IMG/VR virus record: IMGVR_UViG_3300022851_000003
DNA length: 59,477 bases
Origin: a virus
Reading direction: 5' to 3' (one strand)
The notes beneath the pieces were generated by a model. That model was not told the DNA's origin, did not search any database, and saw only the letters and a program-made list of their open reading frames with translations. Position 1 is the stretch's first letter. Each line of letters starts with the position of its first letter. Position numbers and translations under genes: made by a program. Below are positions 3,593-51,441 of the stretch, one piece after another.

Positions 3593-4588
3593 GTGGACAA
3601 CGTACTTACGGGGATGGCAGTCATGGCATGTAATTTTTGCGGCAGTTTTGGGATCAACACGAAGTTCGGTTTCGCTCCCAGCGGCGCTAACGTGGACGCG
3701 ACGCTCGTGGCGGCCACCACTCGTGAAGAAATCCTCGTCGAGAACCTGAACTACAGCGATAGTGTGGTCGGTGGACGCGGCATCACCGGATGGATGGACG
3801 CTTCCTCGCTGAAACTACGCAACGGCCAAAGGCTTGTCTCCGGTGGGTTGATTATGGAAATCGGCCCGAACCAGATCGCACCCTGGCTCAGCGCCCTCGT
3901 TGGCAACAGCGCGGCGGCGGTTGCGAACGTGTCAACGACCAAGGAGAAGTGGGACGCGATTCCGTTCGACCTCTCGGTTGAACGCGACAACGTCGATCAC
4001 GGCTACCGCTACTGCGTTGTCAACCGCGCCGTCATTCGAGGGCGATCAAACCCAAGAGACCAACAAGGCCAAATCGTCCAGATGGCATTGAGTTTCCTGG
4101 GCGTCGAAGAGGAAGACATTACGTTCCCCGGCGCGTTGGCATTGCCGAGCGACGCGCAGTACCCATGGCTCCTCGGTGACGCGAGCCTAGATTACGGTGG
4201 TGAAACCTGCTCGCTGATCTCGTTCGACATCACAATCGAAAACATGCTCAAGCCTCTGTTCCGCAACCGACTGACCCCTGGTTGCTTTCGATCGCTCGGC
4301 CGAAAAATCACGATGGACTTTGCCGTTCCCTACGGGGCCGATTCGTACGCGGGATACATCGACGACAACTCGGCGGACGCGGCAGCCGCACTCACGTTCG
4401 CGTCGACCAACCTGCCCGCTGCCGTCTCGGATTACTCAACGATCTTCACGTTCCCCCAGACGCGTCGGATTGCCCACAACTACACGACCGCGAGCAAGGA
4501 CGAAATTCCGTTGCAAATGAAACTCCAGGCTTACATCAAGGGGTCTTCGCCAGCAATGACGATTGCGAACGTGATCTCGGCCGCGTAA
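3593..4588 (+). CDS. hypothetical virion protein
   Basis: 331-aa ORF in structural arc. Confidence 0.5.
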   Translation: MDNVLTGMAVMACNFCGSFGINTKFGFAPSGANVDATLVAATTREEILVENLNYSDSVVGGRGITGWMDASSLKLRNGQRLVSGGLIMEIGPNQIAPWLSALVGNSAAAVANVSTTKEKWDAIPFDLSVERDNVDHGYRYCVVNRAVIRGRSNPRDQQGQIVQMALSFLGVEEEDITFPGALALPSDAQYPWLLGDASLDYGGETCSLISFDITIENMLKPLFRNRLTPGCFRSLGRKITMDFAVPYGADSYAGYIDDNSADAAAALTFASTNLPAAVSDYSTIFTFPQTRRIAHNYTTASKDEIPLQMKLQAYIKGSSPAMTIANVISAA

Positions 4589-27264: not shown

Positions 27265-28233
27265 TTAATCCTTCTTGGCTAGCTCGTTGAGCAACTCGCC
27301 CAACTGCTTGCTTTCCGCCGGGCTCAAATCTTCATCGCCATCGAACTCGCCGCCGATCTCGATCAACGCGTCGTGACTCGATGCGGACAGGAGACGACGT
27401 TCGTACGATGCGAATGCTTCGCTCTTGCCGTCCGCTGATTCGGCGATCAGTGGCGATTCTTCTTGCATCTCTGTCGACAAGTCCAAACCGCTTCCCATGT
27501 CGCCGAGTTTGCGTCGTTGAATCCCGGTCGATCGGACGTGTCCTTCAAACACAACATCCTCGTCGTCCTTCTCAAACGCATCGCGAATCTCTGCCGACAA
27601 TGGCAACCACTTGGACACACGACGGAACACCGTTTTTTTAGCCATTTCGCTCCAATCGGTTTTCCATGGCCCGTTGTTGCCAGACTTGGACCGATTGCGG
27701 ATTGCCTCAACGGCATCCTTGGACATGACCTCGCACTTGGGTTCGCGGTCCTTCATTCGGACTTCGCAATACACCGCGATCACATCACCCTCGCTTTCCG
27801 GCTTGTCCTCGTCCCGTCGCAAATACCACGGGACATGATCGGCCACGATGCCTTTGCTGTACTCAAACAGGTCGCCTTCATGGACAACGTCGGCATGGAT
27901 CGACGACACAACACCGGATCGGTACGCCAGTTCCACCAATCCCTTGTAGTCAATGATGAGCTGGCAAGTGGTTCCATAGGGAATCAAGTGCGCCCTGCGA
28001 CCATCGGGCTCGAGTCCCCATTGGCTCAAGCTCATCATCGCCTCGAAGAACGAAGCCTGAGAACACTGGGCCAGTTTGGGAGTGCGGGTCAGTGCCGTAA
28101 TAGCAACCCGCACCATCCGCTCGGGCGTCATGTGGTCAGGGAGTATCTTGGCGATCTCGTTCTTAAAATGTTCACCCGAAAGATGATCGCGAATCGTTGG
28201 GGCGGACTTCGCAATTTGTTTGTCTTGACTCAT
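27265..28233 (-). CDS. recT: RecT-family single-strand annealing protein
   Basis: FKNEIAKILP...RMVRVAITALTRTPKLAQC...GLEPDGRRAHLIPYG...IIDYKGLVELAYRSG matches the RecT core. Confidence 0.8.
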   Translation of the reverse strand: MSQDKQIAKSAPTIRDHLSGEHFKNEIAKILPDHMTPERMVRVAITALTRTPKLAQCSQASFFEAMMSLSQWGLEPDGRRAHLIPYGTTCQLIIDYKGLVELAYRSGVVSSIHADVVHEGDLFEYSKGIVADHVPWYLRRDEDKPESEGDVIAVYCEVRMKDREPKCEVMSKDAVEAIRNRSKSGNNGPWKTDWSEMAKKTVFRRVSKWLPLSAEIRDAFEKDDEDVVFEGHVRSTGIQRRKLGDMGSGLDLSTEMQEESPLIAESADGKSEAFASYERRLLSASSHDALIEIGGEFDGDEDLSPAESKQLGELLNELAKKD

Positions 28234-28282: not shown

Positions 28283-29290
28283 TCAGCTTGCCTCCCATTC
28301 TTTCTTGTAGTTCAGGTAATTCGGCATTGGCAGCGACAACACATCTCCGTAATGTTCGTGCTTCCAGATACCGCTCGACTCGCATCGACGCAGACCACGG
28401 AACGCCTTCTCGATCTCTTCGACCGCTTGATCGATCCAAGCCGGTTCCAATTCGTAGACCTCCACGCGATAAGGTTTCTTTTTCTCAACGCAGACGAAGT
28501 GAAACGGAACCTCGCGACCCAGCAACGCGTTGACCATGCTGCCGTACAAGACTCGTTGCCGGGCATACCCGAAGTCGGCGACCGCGTTGGCAAACCCTTT
28601 CGGTGATGCACTCCGCACGGTCTTCAAGTCGGCAACGAAACCGCCCATCGCCGTCTCGCTATATCGATCCAACTTGCATCGCGTCAGAATGCCGGTGCCC
28701 GCGTGCTCGCCGATCAACGGAACCTCGCTTTCACCTTCACCGAACAGCAGACGATTGGCCGAGTCGTGAGCACGCAAGGCGTCCTCCATGTCACGAAGCT
28801 GATCGTACGTCTCGTTCGACGTGACAACCTGGCCCTCGGGAACAACGACCGACGATCGAACCTTTTGCTCGAGCTGATCGAACTCCTCGCTTTTCATCAA
28901 CACGCTGCCCTTATGCAACTTGGCCCAATCCGTGTAAGGCTTGCCACGGCAATAACCTTGCTCGTTCAACACATGATCGGGAATCCGAGTCGCGATCCGA
29001 AACTTCGAGGCGATCTTCAAATACTCATTACGCGAAACCCCGGTCACTTCGGGATCCAGCACGGTCGACGTTTGCAGCCCACCCTCGAGCGTCATCTCAT
29101 GAAGGGCGGTGCCGAGCAATCTATCCGGCGTATCGCCACTGGGTTCGATCAGACCCGTGTTGTAAAGACCGTCGTACAGAGCCGGGTCATCGAGGAACCT
29201 GCTCATCTTCGAGTTACTGACGCCTGGCCCAGCGTGATACTCTTCGTTGGTGCCAGCATCAAAACGTTCAATAGCGGTGAACTGAATCAC
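28283..29290 (-). CDS. RecE/YqaJ-like PD-(D/E)xK exonuclease
   Basis: N-terminal EEYHAGPGVSNSKMSRFLDDPALY typical of exonuclease VIII-like proteins; directly upstream of recT; GTG start overlaps csrA stop. Confidence 0.6.
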   Translation of the reverse strand: MIQFTAIERFDAGTNEEYHAGPGVSNSKMSRFLDDPALYDGLYNTGLIEPSGDTPDRLLGTALHEMTLEGGLQTSTVLDPEVTGVSRNEYLKIASKFRIATRIPDHVLNEQGYCRGKPYTDWAKLHKGSVLMKSEEFDQLEQKVRSSVVVPEGQVVTSNETYDQLRDMEDALRAHDSANRLLFGEGESEVPLIGEHAGTGILTRCKLDRYSETAMGGFVADLKTVRSASPKGFANAVADFGYARQRVLYGSMVNALLGREVPFHFVCVEKKKPYRVEVYELEPAWIDQAVEEIEKAFRGLRRCESSGIWKHEHYGDVLSLPMPNYLNYKKEWEAS

Positions 29291-29466
29291 TTATCATTAC
29301 TTTCATTCTTGGGTTGGGTTTGAATAATGTCATCCCGATGGATGTCGATGGTCCGATCCGCGTCGATACCGATACGAACCTTGTCGCCACGAATGTCAAC
29401 GACAACGACCTTGATGTCCTTGCCAATCATGATGGCTTCACCAATGCGTCTACTAAGAACCAACAC
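29287..29466 (-). CDS. csrA: CsrA/RsmA-family RNA-binding regulator
   Basis: VLVLSRRIGEAIMIGKDIKVVVVDIRGDKVRIGIDADRTIDIHRDDI aligns with CsrA ([46 protein letters not shown]); GTG start 6 nt after GGGAG. Confidence 0.7.
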   Translation of the reverse strand: MLVLSRRIGEAIMIGKDIKVVVVDIRGDKVRIGIDADRTIDIHRDDIIQTQPKNESNDK

Positions 29467-29509
29467 GCCACACTCCCTTTGGTGTTGAAGAACAGGACTT
29501 TCAAAACAT

Positions 29510-29594
29510 TCGAGGCGATCGGAATCGAACCGACGCACGCCACCTTTCCGCAAACGCTTCTTAAATGGCCGCTCTACCAGTGAGCTACGCCTCG
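29510..29594 (-). tRNA. tRNA-like element with non-canonical anticodon region
   Basis: Acceptor CGAGGCG/CGCCTCG, D-arm GCTC-ACTGGTA-GAGC, T-arm GTCGG-TTCGATT-CCGAT; a 4-bp stem with a 23-nt loop replaces the anticodon arm. Confidence 0.4.
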
Positions 29595-29703
29595 ATGGGT
29601 CACAATGGGGTGGCAAATCCCCGGTTCCTACCTTTCGGTAACGTCGCTTGCTTCACCACGACGCGCCGCCATGCCTATCTACAAATCCTTGATTGGTTCG
29701 ACC

Positions 29704-29976
29704 TCAGCTAGACAGTGGGATCAGGACTTCAAAGGTGGGGACGCATTCGACCTTGCTGACCTTCAGACCGTAGAGACTGTCGAGTTCCATCACCAAGTTG
29801 CCGGTGCGAATCTTGTCTCCGTGCTTAAAAGCGACGTTATGTCCCTTGAGCGTTTCCTTGATGGCGTCGCAAACAATCTTGCGTCGCTTCATCGCATCGT
29901 CCTGGGTCTTGTCGATCGAGGCGATCTCGTTGAGGGCTTCATCCAACATCAACGATTCATTATCACGAACATTCAT
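29704..29976 (-). CDS. hypothetical protein (first gene of early operon)
   Basis: ORF 29704-29994; ATG at 29976 preceded by AAAGGA. Confidence 0.4.
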   Translation of the reverse strand: MNVRDNESLMLDEALNEIASIDKTQDDAMKRRKIVCDAIKETLKGHNVAFKHGDKIRTGNLVMELDSLYGLKVSKVECVPTFEVLIPLSS

Positions 29977-29994
29977 CTCATTCCTTTCGAGCAC

Positions 29995-30043: not shown

Positions 30044-30266
30044 AGGCCGAAGCCTTCAAAAGTTGAGTTGTCGACCGCACGAGTGGAAGATTAAGCGAGC
30101 GGCTGCGTGATTCCAGATCGGTGACCACGGACAATCACCGGCACCCGGCTAGCCAAGGATGGCGACGGCGCACCGAGGCTGACCGCAGGTAAAAGTTTCG
30201 GATTTCTTTGCAAACCGACAAATATCCATTTCCCCCGACTCAGGTGTCTCGATCCCCATCCATGTC

Positions 30267-30290
30267 GTGGTCACCAAATTGGTCACCAAA
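30267..30290 (+). repeat. candidate integrase arm-type site (GGTCACCAAA x2)
   Basis: GTGGTCACCAAATTGGTCACCAAA; second copy at 30516-30539. Confidence 0.45.
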
Positions 30291-30419
30291 CGGCGTGCGA
30301 ACCAACGCTCACGCCACGAAACGCAGGAATCCCCTTGCCTCCTATACGCAAAACAGCCCACGCGAATCAGGTTCACGAAGGCTGAGAGACGGCTAGCGTA
30401 AGACAAAGGGATTTAGGAT

Positions 30420-30463
30420 CCAGTTCCTTTACTGGAGTGCAGGTTCGATTCCTGTCAGCCCTA
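30420..30463 (+). other. tRNA 3' fragment (candidate attP core)
   Basis: T-arm GCAGG-TTCGATT-CCTGT plus acceptor 3' strand CAGCCCT-A; no complementary 5' acceptor strand upstream. Confidence 0.45.
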
Positions 30464-30515
30464 CTTATAAGAAATGTTTCACTTTTCAAAACCAATCAAA
30501 GTCAGGAAGACTCCC

Positions 30516-30539
30516 GTGGTCACCAAACTGGTCACCAAA
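30516..30539 (+). repeat. candidate integrase arm-type site, copy 2
   Basis: GTGGTCACCAAACTGGTCACCAAA overlapping the integrase 3' end. Confidence 0.45.
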
Positions 30540-31706
30540 TCACGATTGTTTGTACGGCGATTCATCGAAGTCGATCTTCCCTTGCAGATCACCGACGTAG
30601 AATTTCCGCGTCGTTGTCTCGCTCGAATGCCGCAGGATCTCCTGGCACAGTTGGATAGGCATCCCACGCAGGCTCCATCGCGTGACCATGCTCGACCGGA
30701 AGTGTTTGGCCGTGGCCGTCTTCGGTGGCGACCCGGGTTCGGCGATCACCTCGGCCTTGGCTCCGATCGCGGAGATCAGCTTGGACAGAGCGGTTCGGTC
30801 TTTCACTTCGCCGGTCTCGCAACGCGGCTGGTAAATCGCTTCCGTCCGATCCGCCCGCTCCCGCAGGTGCGATGCGAAGTCGTTGGTAATCCTGGCGACC
30901 TGCGCACGCCGGTTCTTCTGGGCGGAAGTCCACGACATCATCGGTGTCGGCGTGTCGAGTCCGATCGGGTAATGCCAGTCACGGCGGGTTGCGTGCATCC
31001 CCAACGGCTCTCGCATCCGACAACCACTGAGCCAAAGAGCTTCCAGGTATTCCTGAACACTCGCCGCCGACCGGGATCCAACCAGGCCCGGGCAAACGTC
31101 CTGCATCTTCCGCAGCGATTCCTCACTGATCGGGATCAACCGCATCGCAGGAAGGTTCTGCTCTTGTCGGCCACGTCTTCGATTCGGCGGCATGTATCGC
31201 ATCAACTCCAGGGAAGCCGCCCACGAAAGACCGCTTCGGAGCGTTGCCATGTAACTCGGGATCGATCCGACCGCGATCGGCTTAAAGCCATCAATCCCCC
31301 GTCGAAGCGCAGTTTCCACCGAGGCGAGGAACAGAGGGGACACGTCCGAAAGAACGAACTCCCCTTGAATGTCCCGGCCCGCAACGGCATCGACGCGTTT
31401 ACAGACGGCAGACCACTTGTATCGGTTGTCGCTCGATGTGTCACTGAGATGGTCAGTCAGGTAGCGATCGCAGAAACGATCCCACGTCCATCCCTCGTTC
31501 CCCGAATTCAGCTTGGAATTCAGTTTGCTCTGAAGCTCGTCGGCCAGTTTATCGGCCGCTCGCTTCGATCTCTTGGAACGGGTGATGATTTCGGTCTTCT
31601 GGGTCTTAACAGACCGCGAGCCGAAGGGCCGCCACTTCAAGTAGTAGCAGCCCTTCGACGATTTCCAAAACGCGCTCACCCGCACAGTGGGCGCACAATG
31701 ATTCAT
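30540..31706 (-). CDS. int: tyrosine integrase
   Basis: C-terminal catalytic region KHFRSSMVTRW ... LRHSSETTTRKFYV (HxxR, H, Y); next to tRNA-derived att core. Confidence 0.8.
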   Translation of the reverse strand: MNHCAPTVRVSAFWKSSKGCYYLKWRPFGSRSVKTQKTEIITRSKRSKRAADKLADELQSKLNSKLNSGNEGWTWDRFCDRYLTDHLSDTSSDNRYKWSAVCKRVDAVAGRDIQGEFVLSDVSPLFLASVETALRRGIDGFKPIAVGSIPSYMATLRSGLSWAASLELMRYMPPNRRRGRQEQNLPAMRLIPISEESLRKMQDVCPGLVGSRSAASVQEYLEALWLSGCRMREPLGMHATRRDWHYPIGLDTPTPMMSWTSAQKNRRAQVARITNDFASHLRERADRTEAIYQPRCETGEVKDRTALSKLISAIGAKAEVIAEPGSPPKTATAKHFRSSMVTRWSLRGMPIQLCQEILRHSSETTTRKFYVGDLQGKIDFDESPYKQS

Positions 31707-43407: not shown

Positions 43408-43617
43408 ATGCCTCTTCCCGATCTGACGACTCGCCAGCAATCCACTCTCATCAACAAGGTGGATCACAACTGCCGTCGAAATGGCAAGAGATTCCTGCGT
43501 GATCTCGGCGGAACTGGGCACGCCGCTGAACTCGACGCGCAATTACAAATCGCCCGTAACAATCCCGATGCGGTGAAAGCCGCCGAACTCTTTACGAAGG
43601 AGAAAGATCGGAAATGA
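43408..43617 (+). CDS. small protein co-transcribed with serine recombinase
   Basis: 69-aa ORF; stop overlaps recombinase start. Confidence 0.4.
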   Translation: MPLPDLTTRQQSTLINKVDHNCRRNGKRFLRDLGGTGHAAELDAQLQIARNNPDAVKAAELFTKEKDRK

Positions 43618-44438
43618 AAGTCATAGGATATGGTCGTGAATCGACCGCCGACCAATCGATTTCTGCCGAAGTGCAGCAGCGACAATGCCGCGAGTGGTTT
43701 GACCGAACATTCAAGGACAATCCTGACGCGAAGTTTGTGCGAATGCTCAACGACGAGTCCGTCTCAGGCAAGACACGCCTGTTCCAACGTCCGCAGGGGA
43801 GTCTCCTGTTGACCATGCTCGAACGAGGCGACACCGTCGTCGCGTCCAAAATGTCACGGATGTTTCGATCCATGCCCGACACGGTCAACACGCTCGACGT
43901 GTTCAATGAAGCCGGCATCAAGGTCGTGCTGCTCGACATCGGCATGGACTTCGACACGCCAGTGGGCAAACTAATCTTCCACATCCTCGGGGCAGTCAAT
44001 CAGTTTGAACGCGAACTAATCTCCGAGCGGACCAAGGAAGCTCTCGCCCAGCTCCGTGAACGTGGCCAATACCTCGGCTCACCACCGCCGGGGTGGAAGT
44101 TCGACAGCAAGCGGACCAACGGGATTCGGGAACTGATCCCTGACATGGACCGCCGCACCTTCGGGGAATACTCCCTCGATCAACTGGTCGAAGGCCGATC
44201 CGCCAAGTCGATTGCCTGCGAGATCGAAGCACTATTGCGGCGCGAGCACATCCAACGACACGGCACCAACCTGAAGGAAAAACGAGAGAAGATCGCGTTC
44301 TCCGACACCGATGTCGTTCGACTCGCCGCCTTTGCAGTGGCCGGGTTCCCGCCGATCAATAGCACGGCGCTGAAAAAAGTCCTCGGTGTCAATCCATTCC
44401 GAGTTGAAACCCTGCGGCAACTGGCAGCGTCCGCCTAA
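43614..44438 (+). CDS. serine recombinase (resolvase/invertase family)
   Basis: N-terminal VIGYGRESTADQS with catalytic Ser context; resolvase-like core through QFERELISERTKEAL; C-terminal extension. Confidence 0.75.
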   Translation: MKVIGYGRESTADQSISAEVQQRQCREWFDRTFKDNPDAKFVRMLNDESVSGKTRLFQRPQGSLLLTMLERGDTVVASKMSRMFRSMPDTVNTLDVFNEAGIKVVLLDIGMDFDTPVGKLIFHILGAVNQFERELISERTKEALAQLRERGQYLGSPPPGWKFDSKRTNGIRELIPDMDRRTFGEYSLDQLVEGRSAKSIACEIEALLRREHIQRHGTNLKEKREKIAFSDTDVVRLAAFAVAGFPPINSTALKKVLGVNPFRVETLRQLAASA

Positions 44439-47995: not shown

Positions 47996-48586
47996 GTGCC
48001 CCGCCCTGCTGACGAACCTGCTTTCACGCCCGAGCATCCGCCGGGCGACGAAAAGTTCTGCACGCTATGCGGGGAAGAAAAACCCATCGACGAATTCCAC
48101 GTCGATGAGTCGGCTCATGACGGACGCAAGTCCAATTGCAAGGCGTGCCGATCACTTCAGCACGCCGAAGATGTGGAGTCTAAGGTCGACCCCCGCCTCG
48201 CCAAGATTGAAGAGGCAGGACTCGAAGCGCTCGACGCCTTCGCGGGTGGCGGATCATTCAACCCGCACACCCAAGAGCTGATCGACGGGTTTATGAGATT
48301 CCTGGGCGGTCACTACGGCCTGGTGAAACTGACGATGGCCCACTACCACGCGGCCAAACCAGGCAGTGCCGAGCGAGGGAAGACACTCGATAAAATCTAC
48401 CGGCTGATCGCCGCTGAGGACAAGCAGGATGGCTCGCTCGACAAACTTGACCGACGCCAACTCGAAGCCCTCGTCGTCAGCATCGGCACCAAAGCCGGGA
48501 TGCTGCCCAAGCCGAACGACACGCTGTCTCTCGATCACCCCGAAACCGTCAACGCGATCGCCCGTTCCAAAGGCGACGCACTATGA
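47996..48586 (+). CDS. zinc-ribbon protein (possible terminase small subunit)
   Basis: CTLCGEEK...CKAC; directly upstream of and overlapping the large terminase start. Confidence 0.35.
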   Translation: MPRPADEPAFTPEHPPGDEKFCTLCGEEKPIDEFHVDESAHDGRKSNCKACRSLQHAEDVESKVDPRLAKIEEAGLEALDAFAGGGSFNPHTQELIDGFMRFLGGHYGLVKLTMAHYHAAKPGSAERGKTLDKIYRLIAAEDKQDGSLDKLDRRQLEALVVSIGTKAGMLPKPNDTLSLDHPETVNAIARSKGDAL

Positions 48587-51441
48587 TTGACGACATCGAA
48601 TTCAGTGACATCGATCTTTCGACACACCTCGACACCGCCAACGAGATGCAGTCGGGCAGCGAAGCCAACGACTACGTGATCGACGAGTATCACCTGCACA
48701 AGATGCACTCCGCAGCGTCGGAGATCCAGCGCCGGGACATGGAGGCGATGCGGATCTATCGCCCCTCCAAAATCCAAGAGCAGTACCACGCATCCACTGC
48801 CAAGGAGACCGTGTTCGTTGCCGGGAACCAAATCGGCAAATCCATTGCCGGATACTCGGAAGACGGACGAGCTGCCGGTGGATGCGACCCGTACGGCAAG
48901 TACCCCGAGAAAGATGGCATCCTGGCCATCGTGGTCTACAAGGAATCGCAGATCAGGCTGAACACCTATCGGTATCTCCTCAAGCCCGGTGCGTTCGACA
49001 TCATCCAAGACGAAGAGACCGGCATCTGGAAACCCTATTATCCCTGGGTTCCCTCCGATGTTGCTCGCGCCGATCAACGGCGGCCCGCCCCACCGATCCT
49101 TCCACCGCGAATGATTAAGAGAATCCACTGGAAGTCCAAGATGGGCAACGTCCTGTCTCGGATCGACATGGAGAACGGTTGGGAGATTCACGTCTTCTCG
49201 TCGACCGCGAAACCAGATGCCGGGTTCCAAGCCGACCTCGTTCATATCGATGAAGACATCGCCAACGAAGAATGGTACGTCGAGATGATCGCCCGTCTCT
49301 CGATCCGCAAGGGACTCCTGCGATGGACCGCCCTACCGCTGTTCGATAACGACGCGCTGCCTCGTATCGTCGAACGGGCCGACGACGAAGCGGAGAAGCA
49401 CGCACGCGGCGGACCTGTGCCTACCACGACGGTCGTTCGCGGAACCATTTTCGATAACCCGTACCTGACCGACGATACCCGCGAAGAAAACATCAAGCGA
49501 TGGAAGGACGCGGGCGACGATGTCTACCGGCAACGTGCCCTCGGAGAACTCATCACCGACACGGTTCGGATGTACCCGACGTTCACGCCGGAAATCCATG
49601 CCGTCCAACGTTACGGCGAATCGCATCCTGAGTTGTTCGGCGAGTACCTTCGCACCCGTCGAATCCCCGACGATTGGTGTCTGAGATTGTTTGTTGACCC
49701 TGGGTTCTCCACCTGTGCCGCGTTGCTGTTCGCGACCCTGCGACCCGAGGGCGGCGACGACTCCGAACCAATGATTCACGTTGCTGTGCGTGAAATCTAT
49801 CGCCAGCAATGTGACGCCTCGATCTTTGCCCAACTCGCCTCGCAAACCGTTGGCGATCGATGGTTGCAAGCGATGGTCATCGACGCCCACGGTGGTCGAC
49901 TCACCGGCATCGGCGATGGTCGGCGTCCACAAGAGATCTACGAAAGCGAACTGGCCGAACGAAACGTCGTGTGCGTGGAGACCGGCTCTCGCTTCCGTGC
50001 TGGCTGCGACGACATCGTCTACCGGGAAACCGCACTGCGACAACGGTTGATCGTCTCGCCAGTCACCGGGCTACCGGAGTTTATGTACGACGAGGAGATG
50101 TGCCCGAACCTTGAAAAAGAAATGGTGCGGTTCCGAAAGCTGAGAACCCGTGGCGTCATCACCGATAAAGGCAACCGCAAAGCATTTACGCACGCTGTCG
50201 AGTGTTTCTGTGACCAAACCGAAGTCCTTACTGAAAGTGGCTGGAAGCGTTTTGCAGACGCCAGTATCAGCGACCGTTTAGCGACCGTGAACTTGGATAC
50301 CGATACGCTTGAGTTTCAGCATCCATCTCGAATTGTTGAAAGACCTCACAACGGACCGATGGTTCATGTTCACGCACAGAAGCTCAATGCGATGGTCACT
50401 CCTAATCATCGGATGGTTTACTACTCCGACACCGCAAGGCGAAAAAAGACAGGTCCATCTATCTGTTTCGCGGGCGACCTGTCTCCAAGCTATGCGTTAA
50501 AGCTGGCGGCAAAAAACTGGAACGCAGTTTCACCAAAGACATTCGTGCTGCCTGCGGTAGAACTGGATTCGCGACCAGGTAAGCCTGCCGAATTAAACAG
50601 ACTCGACTTCGCCCGGTTCATGGGATGGTACATCGCCGAAGGCTCTGCGGACAAAACAGTGCGTTGCCCTGGAAAGGGCTATCGCGTGTGCATTGCACAG
50701 AGAAAAGAACACGGCATCAACGCGATTCGCGAAATGCTTTCAAAGCTACCGTTTCATTTCGTTGTATCGGGCGACTGCTTCGTGATCTCCAACAAGCAAC
50801 TGTGGTCGTACCTTCGCCAGTTCGGAGACTGCTACACCAAGTTCGTTCCAGACTGGGTGCGACACGGAAGCAGAGAAGTCATCGAGTCGTTTATGGAAGG
50901 CGCTATGGCTGGCGATGGGTGGGTACAAAAGAACGCTCGACGATACGGAACCTCCAGCCCCCGCCTCGCCGACGACATCCAAGAACTATTCCTCAAACTC
51001 GGTTGTTCTGCATCTGTCACTGTTCGGTCGGCAGAGACGGCCGTGTCAAGGATGGTGAGAGGAAAGCCCTGCAAATCTACCTGTGATTTCTTCACGGTAA
51101 TCGAGAGGCTTGTTCCGAGCGTCCGCCTTAGTGACGCACACGACAAGCCGAATTTCAGCACAACGAACTACACCGGAAAGGTGTTCTGCGCAACCGTCCC
51201 CAATGGGACTCTTGTTGTAAGACGCAACGGCCAACCGCTCGTCGCTGGCAATTGCTATGAGTACGCAGCCGCCGACGAACTCAAGTACCACGCACCTCCC
51301 GCCCGTCGAACCCGCGAAACCCCCGGCGAACGTCGTGTTCGGATGTGGCGGGAACGCCAAGCGAAGCGACGAAAACAAATGGGTGGCGCTCTCGGCGTCA
51401 TCCATGGCGGCATCGACCTGTCTGCTCCCATGCCCACTTAA
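48583..51441 (+). CDS. terL: terminase large subunit interrupted by an intein
   Basis: P-loop-like VFVAGNQIGKS, Walker B-like ADLVHIDE, nuclease-like RLFVDPGFS and AMVIDAHGG; 350-aa intein in the C-terminal region. Confidence 0.65.
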   Translation: MIDDIEFSDIDLSTHLDTANEMQSGSEANDYVIDEYHLHKMHSAASEIQRRDMEAMRIYRPSKIQEQYHASTAKETVFVAGNQIGKSIAGYSEDGRAAGGCDPYGKYPEKDGILAIVVYKESQIRLNTYRYLLKPGAFDIIQDEETGIWKPYYPWVPSDVARADQRRPAPPILPPRMIKRIHWKSKMGNVLSRIDMENGWEIHVFSSTAKPDAGFQADLVHIDEDIANEEWYVEMIARLSIRKGLLRWTALPLFDNDALPRIVERADDEAEKHARGGPVPTTTVVRGTIFDNPYLTDDTREENIKRWKDAGDDVYRQRALGELITDTVRMYPTFTPEIHAVQRYGESHPELFGEYLRTRRIPDDWCLRLFVDPGFSTCAALLFATLRPEGGDDSEPMIHVAVREIYRQQCDASIFAQLASQTVGDRWLQAMVIDAHGGRLTGIGDGRRPQEIYESELAERNVVCVETGSRFRAGCDDIVYRETALRQRLIVSPVTGLPEFMYDEEMCPNLEKEMVRFRKLRTRGVITDKGNRKAFTHAVECFCDQTEVLTESGWKRFADASISDRLATVNLDTDTLEFQHPSRIVERPHNGPMVHVHAQKLNAMVTPNHRMVYYSDTARRKKTGPSICFAGDLSPSYALKLAAKNWNAVSPKTFVLPAVELDSRPGKPAELNRLDFARFMGWYIAEGSADKTVRCPGKGYRVCIAQRKEHGINAIREMLSKLPFHFVVSGDCFVISNKQLWSYLRQFGDCYTKFVPDWVRHGSREVIESFMEGAMAGDGWVQKNARRYGTSSPRLADDIQELFLKLGCSASVTVRSAETAVSRMVRGKPCKSTCDFFTVIERLVPSVRLSDAHDKPNFSTTNYTGKVFCATVPNGTLVVRRNGQPLVAGNCYEYAAADELKYHAPPARRTRETPGERRVRMWRERQAKRRKQMGGALGVIHGGIDLSAPMPT
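50203..51252 (+). mobile_element. intein with LAGLIDADG homing endonuclease
   Basis: Block A CFCDQTEVLTESG, block B TPNH, LAGLIDADG motifs FMGWYIAEGS and FMEGAMAGDG, C-terminal VAGN followed by Cys +1. Confidence 0.7.

Follow-up and report, generated by a model that had tools for sequence, protein, structure and literature searches.

An RNA element in the genome of a bacteriophage has an intact tRNA body, has no readable anticodon, and lies directly before a gene for the regulator CsrA. The question that this locus raises is whether the element is a working tRNA, a broken one, or an RNA with some other role in the transcript to which it would belong. The phage is tailed and temperate, and among its proteins Pfam recognized a P22-like portal, a tail tube protein, RecU, a serine recombinase and, with a weak match, a tyrosine integrase. 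We analyzed it as a single stretch of 59,477 nt—i.e., the whole of IMG/VR record IMGVR_UViG_3300022851_000003, referred to below as the window—and near-identical sequences are present in IMG/VR. Since the closest named homologues of its CsrA are those of Planctomycetes, the host probably belongs to the Planctomycetota. The answer that we favor, with moderate confidence, is that the element is a phage tRNA gene, once tRNA-Phe(GAA) by a tentative assignment, which was disabled by an insertion of ~14 nt into the anticodon loop and persists as a leader and probable processing site. Taken alone, it would be one more non-decoding phage tRNA-like gene; its linkage to csrA is the more interesting part.

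A complete tRNA body with an oversized anticodon loop

The original prediction, made by reading the sequence alone, had placed a tRNA-like element of 85 nt at 29510–29594 on the minus strand, and a match of Rfam family RF00005 (tRNA) to exactly these coordinates and this strand, over the full length, was obtained with 48.2 bits (gathering score 29, E = 3e-7). This was the sole gathering-level RNA match within the 59.5-kb window, and a scan of the window at a permissive E-value returned nothing credible beyond it. A general tRNA covariance model (R2), which we made from 50 canonical tRNAs collected for this work, scored the element at 48.8 bits. Default ARAGORN called no tRNA and no tmRNA anywhere in the window. 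An identity as tmRNA was considered and rejected, there being no tmRNA call by ARAGORN, no tmRNA match in Rfam, and a full cloverleaf in the element.

From 5' to 3', the element reads CGAGGCG-UA-GCUC-ACUGGUA-GAGC-G-GCCAU-UUAAGAAGCGUUUGCGGAAAG-GUGGC-GUGC-GUCGG-UUCGAUU-CCGAU-CGCCUCG-A. The acceptor, D and T arms, which had been described as perfect, proved to be so in both sequence and fold. The 5' strand of the acceptor stem (CGAGGCG, 29588–29594) pairs with CGCCUCG at 29511–29517 through seven of seven Watson–Crick pairs, followed by a discriminator A at 29510; no CCA is encoded. The D arm (GCUC-ACUGGUA-GAGC, 29571–29585) carries A14, G18, G19, and A21, as seen in the sequence, the Rfam alignment, and an alignment to canonical tRNAs, and the T arm (GUCGG-UUCGAUU-CCGAU, 29518–29534) carries G53, U54, U55, C56, A58, and C61; the variable region, GUGC, has 4 nt. 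All 21 stem pairs are standard pairs, and each of the 11 invariant or near-invariant positions outside the anticodon, as judged against the 50 canonical tRNAs, is kept (U8, G10, A14, G18, A21, G53, U54, U55, C56, A58, and C61). Position 15, a C, is unusual. The cloverleaf is the minimum free energy (MFE) fold of the element; its folding energy was unremarkable relative to shuffled sequences (z = −1.2), and the case that the element is real is therefore made by the covariance-model scores and not by thermodynamics. With its elbow nucleotides and arms intact, the RNA should fold into an L shape.

The anticodon region is different. The interval between the D and T arms is exactly 36 nt, and a brute-force scan of it, with G-U pairs allowed, agreed with the earlier reading that no 5-bp stem closing a 7-nt loop can be formed at any offset. 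The best fold proposed at that time, a 4-bp stem (GCCA/UGGC) closing a 23-nt loop, was correct as far as it went but conservative. With a U-G pair added, the arm at 29539–29569 becomes GCCAU/GUGGC closing a 21-nt loop, UUAAGAAGCGUUUGCGGAAAG, as found by stem search, by folding, and in the Rfam alignment, and it can be extended to a 7-bp stem (GCCAUUU/AGGUGGC) with a 17-nt loop, which is the MFE structure. In the Rfam alignment, 18 nt occupy the loop where 4 are expected. The covariance models assigned no canonical anticodon arm and put the ~14 extra nt in the loop. The tools thus bear out the first interpretation: the element falls outside the standard type I and type II tRNAs and fits the identities then put forward, whether a degenerate phage tRNA, a tRNA carrying a small insertion, or a mimic.

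When introns were allowed, and only then, ARAGORN called the element, as tRNA-Phe(gaa) i(33,14), with 14 extra nt (AAGAAGCGUUUGCG, 29549–29562) between U33 and G34. Removal of this putative "intron" leaves a canonical UU-GAA-AG loop, and the resulting 71-nt sequence was accepted by default ARAGORN as tRNA-Phe. In a scan of the eight possible 14-nt deletions, five products read Phe (GAA or AAA) and three read Leu(AAG), and the canonical UU-GAA-AG loop was restored only by the U33|G34 cut; the type I body is unsuited to a bacterial tRNA-Leu. Isotype profiles of the body alone did not discriminate (Gly, 22.6 bits; Asn, 20.8 bits; Thr, 19.9 bits; Phe and Ala, 19.6 bits each), and BLAST of the body against phages and Escherichia coli was uninformative as to isotype; the ranking of nearest tRNAs was mixed. 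The Phe label is weak, since the isotype profiles rank Phe no higher than Gly, Asn, or Thr and three of the eight deletions read Leu(AAG); we therefore propose a Phe(GAA) ancestry only tentatively. As for the loop itself, no antisense or seed target of its 21 nt was found in the window at up to three mismatches, except for the loop, and shorter matches were at chance level. The element contains a single GGA, which lies in single-stranded loop context within GCGGAAAGG.

Copies of the locus recovered from IMG/VR, ENA, and JGI were ~99–100% identical over kilobases, and in all of them the lone polymorphism in the 254-nt csrA leader was a change of UU to CC at tRNA positions 32–33 (29563–29564), the first two nucleotides of the loop, which defines a second haplotype. 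In the CC form, a U-G pair of the extended stem becomes C-G, and the fold is slightly more stable (−32.5 versus −31.6 kcal/mol). The CC form also lacks the nearly universal U33, which argues against a decoding role. The 2 differences in the 254-nt leader, set against ~0.7% overall, mean that the leader diverges at the rate of its flanks; the variation is therefore silent on selection and gives no sign of purifying selection. A search for relatives through the exonuclease gene, in viral and metagenome collections, returned only ~99–100% identical copies, and the leader was identical in all contigs of the CsrA designated P0001. The near-identical copies show no covariation, and in several samples (among them ERZ27315623 and its siblings, and Ga0136600) the element is fixed as one or the other of two haplotypes. 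For annotation, the locus is a trap: ARAGORN misses the element, Rfam says "tRNA", intron-tolerant callers would say tRNA-Phe, and all of these would mislead.

Genes around the element

Read along the minus strand, the locus runs from the integrase gene through a noncoding gap, a 96-aa ORF, the element, a 43-nt spacer, and csrA to an exonuclease gene and recT. The integrase gene (30540–31706, weak Pfam match) lies ~950 nt to ~1 kb from the element, with the 96-aa ORF (29704–29994, no assigned function) between them, upstream of the element and on the same strand. The spacer (29467–29509) holds a ribosome-binding site, AAAGGGAG, which includes one GGA. It is followed by csrA (29287–29466), which encodes 59 aa from a GTG start (Pfam CsrA, PF02599, 74.8 bits), by the gene for a PD-(D/E)XK exonuclease (DUF3799, 28283–29290), the first 4 nt of which overlap the end of csrA, and by that for a RecT single-strand annealing protein (27265–28233; Pfam RecT, 172.8 bits); these three genes overlap or lie close together. 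Consensus scans revealed nothing convincing as a promoter-like site between the 96-aa ORF and the element, and neither a terminator scan nor folding revealed a terminator-like hairpin after it, in the 43-nt spacer. Without a promoter just upstream or a terminator behind it, the element is probably internal to an early transcript that continues into csrA. The structural features of a punctuation signal are present: the acceptor–T minihelix and the D/T elbow are intact, and no promoter or terminator sites flank them.

These observations can be joined in a simple mechanism. Some 14 nt would have been inserted into the anticodon loop of a former tRNA-Phe(GAA), formally between U33 and G34, and the element would be transcribed within the early leftward transcript, between the 96-aa ORF and the csrA–exonuclease–recT operon. 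RNase P and RNase Z recognize the acceptor, T arm, and elbow of tRNA, and because these parts are intact, excision is to be expected; host RNase P would cut the 5' end, and RNase Z, or RNase E together with exonucleases, would cut the 3' end. Excision would make the element a processing or punctuation site that sets the 5' end of the csrA–exonuclease–recT mRNA, whether or not it was selected to do so. The excised RNA would presumably not be aminoacylated, and decoding by it is unlikely, given that there is no archaeal splicing motif, that the insert is too short for a group I intron, that no RNA-splicing genes were found among the 40 window proteins scanned against Pfam, and that the C32–C33 variant exists.

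The phage has a separate attachment site. At ~30420–30465, on the plus strand and beside the integrase gene, there is the 3' portion of a tRNA, namely its long variable arm, the T arm, and the 3' strand of the acceptor stem, and a copy of GTGGTCACCAAAYTGGTCACCAAA lies on either side of this fragment (30266–30290 and 30515–30539). This is the anatomy expected of an attP, and the locus is a good candidate for one that targets a type II tRNA gene, apart from the element. The gap beside the integrase had come to light through an 11-mer T-loop match. Repeats of any part of the element elsewhere in the window did not exceed chance 10–11-mers.

tRNA-type elements upstream of csrA in other phages and genomes

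Phage-borne csrA is common, being present in at least 528 viral stretches. In a set of 78 viral csrA loci picked regardless of tRNAs, one contig of an unrelated phage (listed twice, as L137 and L242) has a canonical tRNA-Phe(GAA) that ends 44 nt before csrA, compared with 43 nt here; it is the sole such case in the 78 loci. At several more of these loci, a tRNA-type element lies no more than 300 nt from csrA, and by our own tally of this tRNA-blind set, 6 of 10 tRNA-type elements lay within that distance, all on the same strand. Two loci (L126 and L131) have 46–63 nt in place of the anticodon region, and their elements were missed by ARAGORN.

We also scanned directly for a T-loop followed 40–70 nt later by M-L-[VI]-L-[ST]-R, the N terminus of CsrA, a pattern that demands an intact T-loop and so biases which elements can be detected. 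Among viruses, the scan returned 54 stretches, 21 of them with a true CsrA ORF, this phage included; in a collection with one genome per species, there were at least 8 true CsrA cases among at least 120 stretches, and all six title-bearing genome cases among the matches listed were Planctomycetota metagenome-assembled genomes. Besides the present phage, 17 viral loci and at least 8 genome contigs have a tRNA or tRNA-like element 30–60 nt upstream of csrA. Over half of the csrA-linked elements are noncanonical, and these loci have nothing in common with this phage except csrA.

As controls, we used the non-CsrA matches of the same scans, and elements were classified by ARAGORN on longer regions and by R2. 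Among the matches listed, ARAGORN found a canonical tRNA in 12/27 csrA-linked cases as against 94/139 controls (one-sided Fisher p = 0.02). Of the viral elements detected by R2, 4 of 13 csrA-linked ones were noncanonical (this phage, L215/L219, L209, and L235), compared to none of 15 controls (p ~0.035 by hand calculation). The canonical csrA-linked tRNAs included tRNA-Met(CAU) in 7 of 12 cases, versus 6 of 94 controls, among the matches listed. Those csrA-linked upstream elements without a tRNA score matched no described family in Rfam, and no report of a tRNA–csrA linkage was found in the literature. Together, these results indicate a real, lineage-restricted tendency of csrA to follow a tRNA or tRNA-derived element; aberrant forms are in modest excess near csrA, at a modest level of significance.

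The most telling comparator is the element of another phage locus, L235, which lies 33 nt before csrA in a replication and recombination module, beside an AAA_24 ATPase gene. It is 86 nt long, and its unconstrained fold is a cloverleaf (z = −3.35), with a score of 34.6 bits when model filters were off. Its "anticodon" stem (GUGGACU/AGUCCAC) has 7 bp and closes an 18-nt loop, and its variable region has 4 nt. The architecture is therefore equal to that of the present element, and every stem differs in sequence.

The linkage has clear limits, and the csrA-linked elements are sporadic and heterogeneous. The closest CsrA homologues of this phage (P0002, P0020, and P0011) have no upstream tRNA-like element even with model filters off, and the element is therefore not obligatory for csrA expression; the CsrA relatives of L235 are likewise mostly without such an element, and the closest ones have none upstream. 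Three apparent connections were rejected. "Long" CsrA proteins, which might have been products of read-through of a tRNA-like element, instead have C-terminal extensions. A loop motif, GAAGCGUUU, shared by the element and L134 was put down to chance, as a viral scan for it returned 15 stretches, mostly D arms or the bodies of type II tRNAs. A 10-mer, GUUUGCGGAA, in common with L199 was likewise treated as chance; it is base-paired in a stem of L199, and the rest is unrelated.

Competing explanations and known systems

The alternative that survives best holds that the element is an adaptive, tRNA-shaped csrA leader or regulatory RNA, in which the body would serve as scaffold and processing handle and the remodeled arm would be functional, either through a CsrA-binding GGA (autoregulation) or as a CsrA sponge. 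We regard this as unlikely but as deserving serious consideration. It would account for the elements, more than half of them noncanonical, that recur 30–60 nt ahead of csrA in contigs of Planctomycetota and of unrelated phages, and for the same-strand elements of the tRNA-blind tally; it would also fit the extended stem and large loop that L235 has independently, and a single compensatory change between L234 and L237 in an acceptor-like stem. In the element itself, the loop exposes the GGA of GCGGAAAGG, and the ribosome-binding site lies in a predicted hairpin loop. However, one GGA is all that the element has, and the 4–5 GGA in the ~250-nt region are what base composition would lead one to expect, by our estimate. 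Nor are the aberrant arms enriched in GGA: the L235 loop and the arms of L215, L221, L228, and L252 have none, and no motif common to the aberrant arms was found. The absence of the element from the closest CsrA relatives also speaks against this explanation. Dual-site binding by CsrA has a reported spacing range, and the ~70 nt between the loop GGA and that of the ribosome-binding site fall at its edge. The sponge RNAs CsrB, RsmY, and RsmZ are similar in that a small structured RNA with GGA in an exposed loop is found by csrA here; they carry many GGA hairpins, in contrast to the single GGA of the element, which has no Csr/Rsm match in Rfam.

Slightly more doubtful is the proposal that, in Planctomycetota and their phages, csrA has repeatedly been coupled to tRNA-derived leaders whose body is kept and whose anticodon arm is remodeled. 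Such leaders would form an undescribed class of natural "tRNA-scaffold" RNAs, in cis or as small RNAs, that govern how csrA transcripts are processed, how stable they are, or their CsrA-dependent feedback, and would not be decaying tRNA genes. Examples under this proposal would be the element and L235, each with a 7-bp stem and a loop of 17–18 nt, as well as L215, L252, and L290/L327.

It is improbable, in our view, that the element acts as a decoy or mimic. In that role it would engage proteins that recognize the tRNA body (e.g., tRNA-targeting nucleases or toxins of host defense, modification enzymes, the CCA-adding enzyme, or EF-Tu) and evade those that read the anticodon loop. In favor of this, the acceptor, T, and D architecture is fully kept and the anticodon loop destroyed, and the element lies in an early phage region, where counterdefense genes are often found. 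But Pfam recognized no defense or counterdefense gene beside it, and the sporadic and heterogeneous nature of the comparable elements argues against a single conserved target.

A functional tRNA-Phe(GAA) with a 14-nt mini-intron, spliced by an unspecified host or phage activity, is very improbable; in its favor are the intron-mode call of ARAGORN, the acceptance of the 71-nt product by default ARAGORN, the flawless remainder of the molecule, and the canonical tRNA-Phe at the same position in L242. The intron mode is permissive, however, and gave "introns" in five other, heterogeneous aberrant elements. Intron-containing tRNA genes, whether archaeal and eukaryal ones with a bulge-helix-bulge or bacterial ones with a group I intron, are similar in having extra anticodon-loop nucleotides that ARAGORN accepts as an intron. 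At the putative splice sites of the element, by contrast, no bulge-helix-bulge could be drawn, the sole inner helix being one of 2 bp (GC/GC), and the insert is at 33/34, not at the canonical 37/38. The host is a bacterium, and to our knowledge group I is the only intron type in bacterial tRNAs. Group I introns self-splice around a conserved P1–P9 core and are about 200 nt or longer; an insert of 14 nt is an order of magnitude below that size, and Rfam matched no intron in the window. No RNA ligase or splicing endonuclease was matched by Pfam in any of the 40 window proteins scanned, many ORFs being without any Pfam match. Removal of the insert from the second haplotype would, moreover, give a C32–C33 loop without U33, and the literature searches turned up no short tRNA introns for Planctomycetes or phages.

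Least probable of all is an attachment site, or a recombination remnant or scar in a tRNA anticodon loop, with no role at the RNA level: the anticodon loop of a tRNA gene is where many integrases cross over, an integrase gene is ~1 kb away, and the defect is confined to that loop, but the better attP candidate, with its GTGGTCACCAAAYTGGTCACCAAA repeats, is the one beside the integrase, on the strand opposite to the element. The element, moreover, comprises the whole tRNA body and not just its 3' portion, and no part of the element is repeated in the window beyond chance. As an attP or att remnant the element was accordingly rejected; a scar can explain the origin of the insertion and not the present identity of the element.

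We thus return to a disabled tRNA gene that persists as a leader, for which the nearest relatives in kind are the tRNA pseudogenes and "undetermined" tRNAs of phages (e.g., the tRNA-OTHER entries of mycobacteriophages). These too are recognized by covariance models and have no usable anticodon loop, and the nearest BLAST match of the insert-deleted sequence in annotated phages was a "tRNA-OTHER" of Mycobacterium phage Myrna. The element differs from them in having a single clean 14-nt lesion in a flawless body, and in its recurrent position directly before csrA. The element is also comparable to tRNA punctuation, as known from the E. coli thrU–tyrU–glyT–thrT–tufB operon, from mitochondria, and from the tRNA-like processing signal of MALAT1 that yields mascRNA. 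As in those systems, a tRNA fold would lie within a longer transcript by a protein gene and would be excised by RNase P and RNase Z; mascRNA is, in addition, non-decoding. In the phage, by comparison, processing is predicted, and the arrangement is sporadic and not a fixed feature of the gene; mascRNA, for its part, does not come from a bacteriophage.

What the linkage means depends on its cause. If accessory genes simply gather beside tRNA genes, the finding is an ordinary one. If the linkage reflects cotranscription and tRNA-type processing, the dosage of csrA, which encodes a global posttranscriptional regulator, would be tied to the tRNA-processing machinery, and there would be a natural precedent for tRNA-scaffolded RNAs. 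In the engineered "tRNA scaffold" RNAs, a functional insert replaces the anticodon arm. These are a laboratory design, whereas the inserts found here are natural and without a common motif; the likeness is in the build, since both the element and L235 combine an intact acceptor, T, and D body with a foreign hairpin, in each case a 7-bp stem with a loop of 17–18 nt.

Canonical tRNA genes upstream of csrA

Among the matches listed from the T-loop/CsrA scans, tRNA-Met(CAU) accounted for 7 of the 12 canonical csrA-linked tRNAs, compared to 6 of the 94 controls, i.e., the non-CsrA matches of the same scans. Genes for tRNA-Met(CAU) were located 39-59 nt upstream of csrA in the viral loci L214, L230, L236, L247, and L249, as well as in the genomes L275 and L343. 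The CsrA proteins encoded behind these tRNA genes were rather divergent. A conserved 39-nt spacer containing two GGA motifs was common to L275, a Planctomycetaceae genome, and L343, and a TTGCAC-N18-TGTRRC motif upstream of the tRNA was also conserved between the two.

Structured and partial tRNA-type elements before csrA

In two further Planctomycetaceae contigs (L290, 1199-1488; L327, 672-940), a structured element of 111 nt lay between a canonical tRNA and the downstream csrA. The 3' end of this element consisted of a T arm and an acceptor-like stem, and a few positions differed between the L290 and L327 copies. The canonical tRNA scored about 76 bits with R2, our general tRNA covariance model built from 50 canonical tRNAs; the L290 copy carried a CAU anticodon and reached 65.4 bits with Rfam.

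A shorter element of 60-62 nt, in which a T arm and an acceptor-like stem were combined with the single-stranded GCAGGAUUGC, was found upstream of csrA in the viral loci L234 and L237, where it was matched neither by R2 nor by Rfam. Comparison of this pair revealed one compensatory change in the acceptor-like stem (GCGCGGU/GCCGCGC to GCACGGU/GCCGUGC). The same GCAGGAUUGC 10-mer was found again about 100 nt upstream of the tRNA-like element of L235, a viral comparator. In L376, which represents the L235 region, a hairpin that resembles a terminator and includes a U-tract (CCCAGGACC...GGUCCUGGGUUUCUU; about 455-481) ended directly before the first base of that tRNA-like element, thus leaving no space for a promoter between the two. 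Two tandem tRNA-type elements were present upstream of the phage csrA in L209 (3730-3865), the second of which (3804-3865; 32.1 bits) was only 62 nt long, apparently with no anticodon arm.

Probable attachment site, recombinase genes, and other open reading frames of the phage

On the plus strand of the window, a tRNA 3' portion was found between two copies of GTGGTCACCAAAYTGGTCACCAAA (30266-30290 and 30515-30539), adjoining the integrase gene. Its core (about 30420-30465) comprised a long variable arm (CCAGUUCCUUUACUGG), a T arm (GCAGG-UUCGAUU-CCUGU), and the acceptor 3' strand UCAGCC, and the tRNA portion scored just 19.7 bits with the Rfam tRNA-Sec model. The locus at 30266-30539 is a probable attP, and its make-up points to a type II (Ser/Leu-type) tRNA gene as the integration target. 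The integrase gene itself (30540-31706, minus strand) gave a weak tyrosine-integrase match of 19.2 bits, under the Pfam cut-off. This phage also encodes a serine recombinase (43614-44438, plus strand; Resolvase N-terminal domain, 116 bits).

Just upstream of the portal gene, a 952-aa open reading frame (ORF; 48583-51441, plus strand) contained a LAGLIDADG_3 domain at residues 766-815, which may represent an intein or homing endonuclease within a large phage protein. A 109-aa ORF with a TTG start (29287-29616, minus strand) ran in frame across the tRNA-like element into csrA. This is most likely an open-frame artefact, because the CsrA family begins with MLVLSR, and because in other copies the protein predicted by gene callers is the one of 59 aa.

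Viral tRNA genes with inserts in the anticodon region

Three viral tRNA-like genes (L126, 1859-1983; L189, 8872-8983; L131, 1849-1949) retained intact acceptor, D, and T arms, with 40-63 nt in place of the anticodon loop. None was called by ARAGORN in its default, intron-free mode, while Rfam scores were 44.9 bits for L126 and 35.2 bits for L131. A group I intron was ruled out as the insert by length, 40-63 nt being too short.

Type I tRNAs with a GUA (Tyr) anticodon and, immediately 3' of position 37, a short insert were found in six IMG/VR viral contigs (L002, L067, L075, L076, L086, and L094). An origin of these contigs from eukaryotic or archaeal viruses is possible, given the layout of their tRNAs, which is that of the eukaryotic/archaeal tRNA-Tyr gene, unlike the bacterial type II form.
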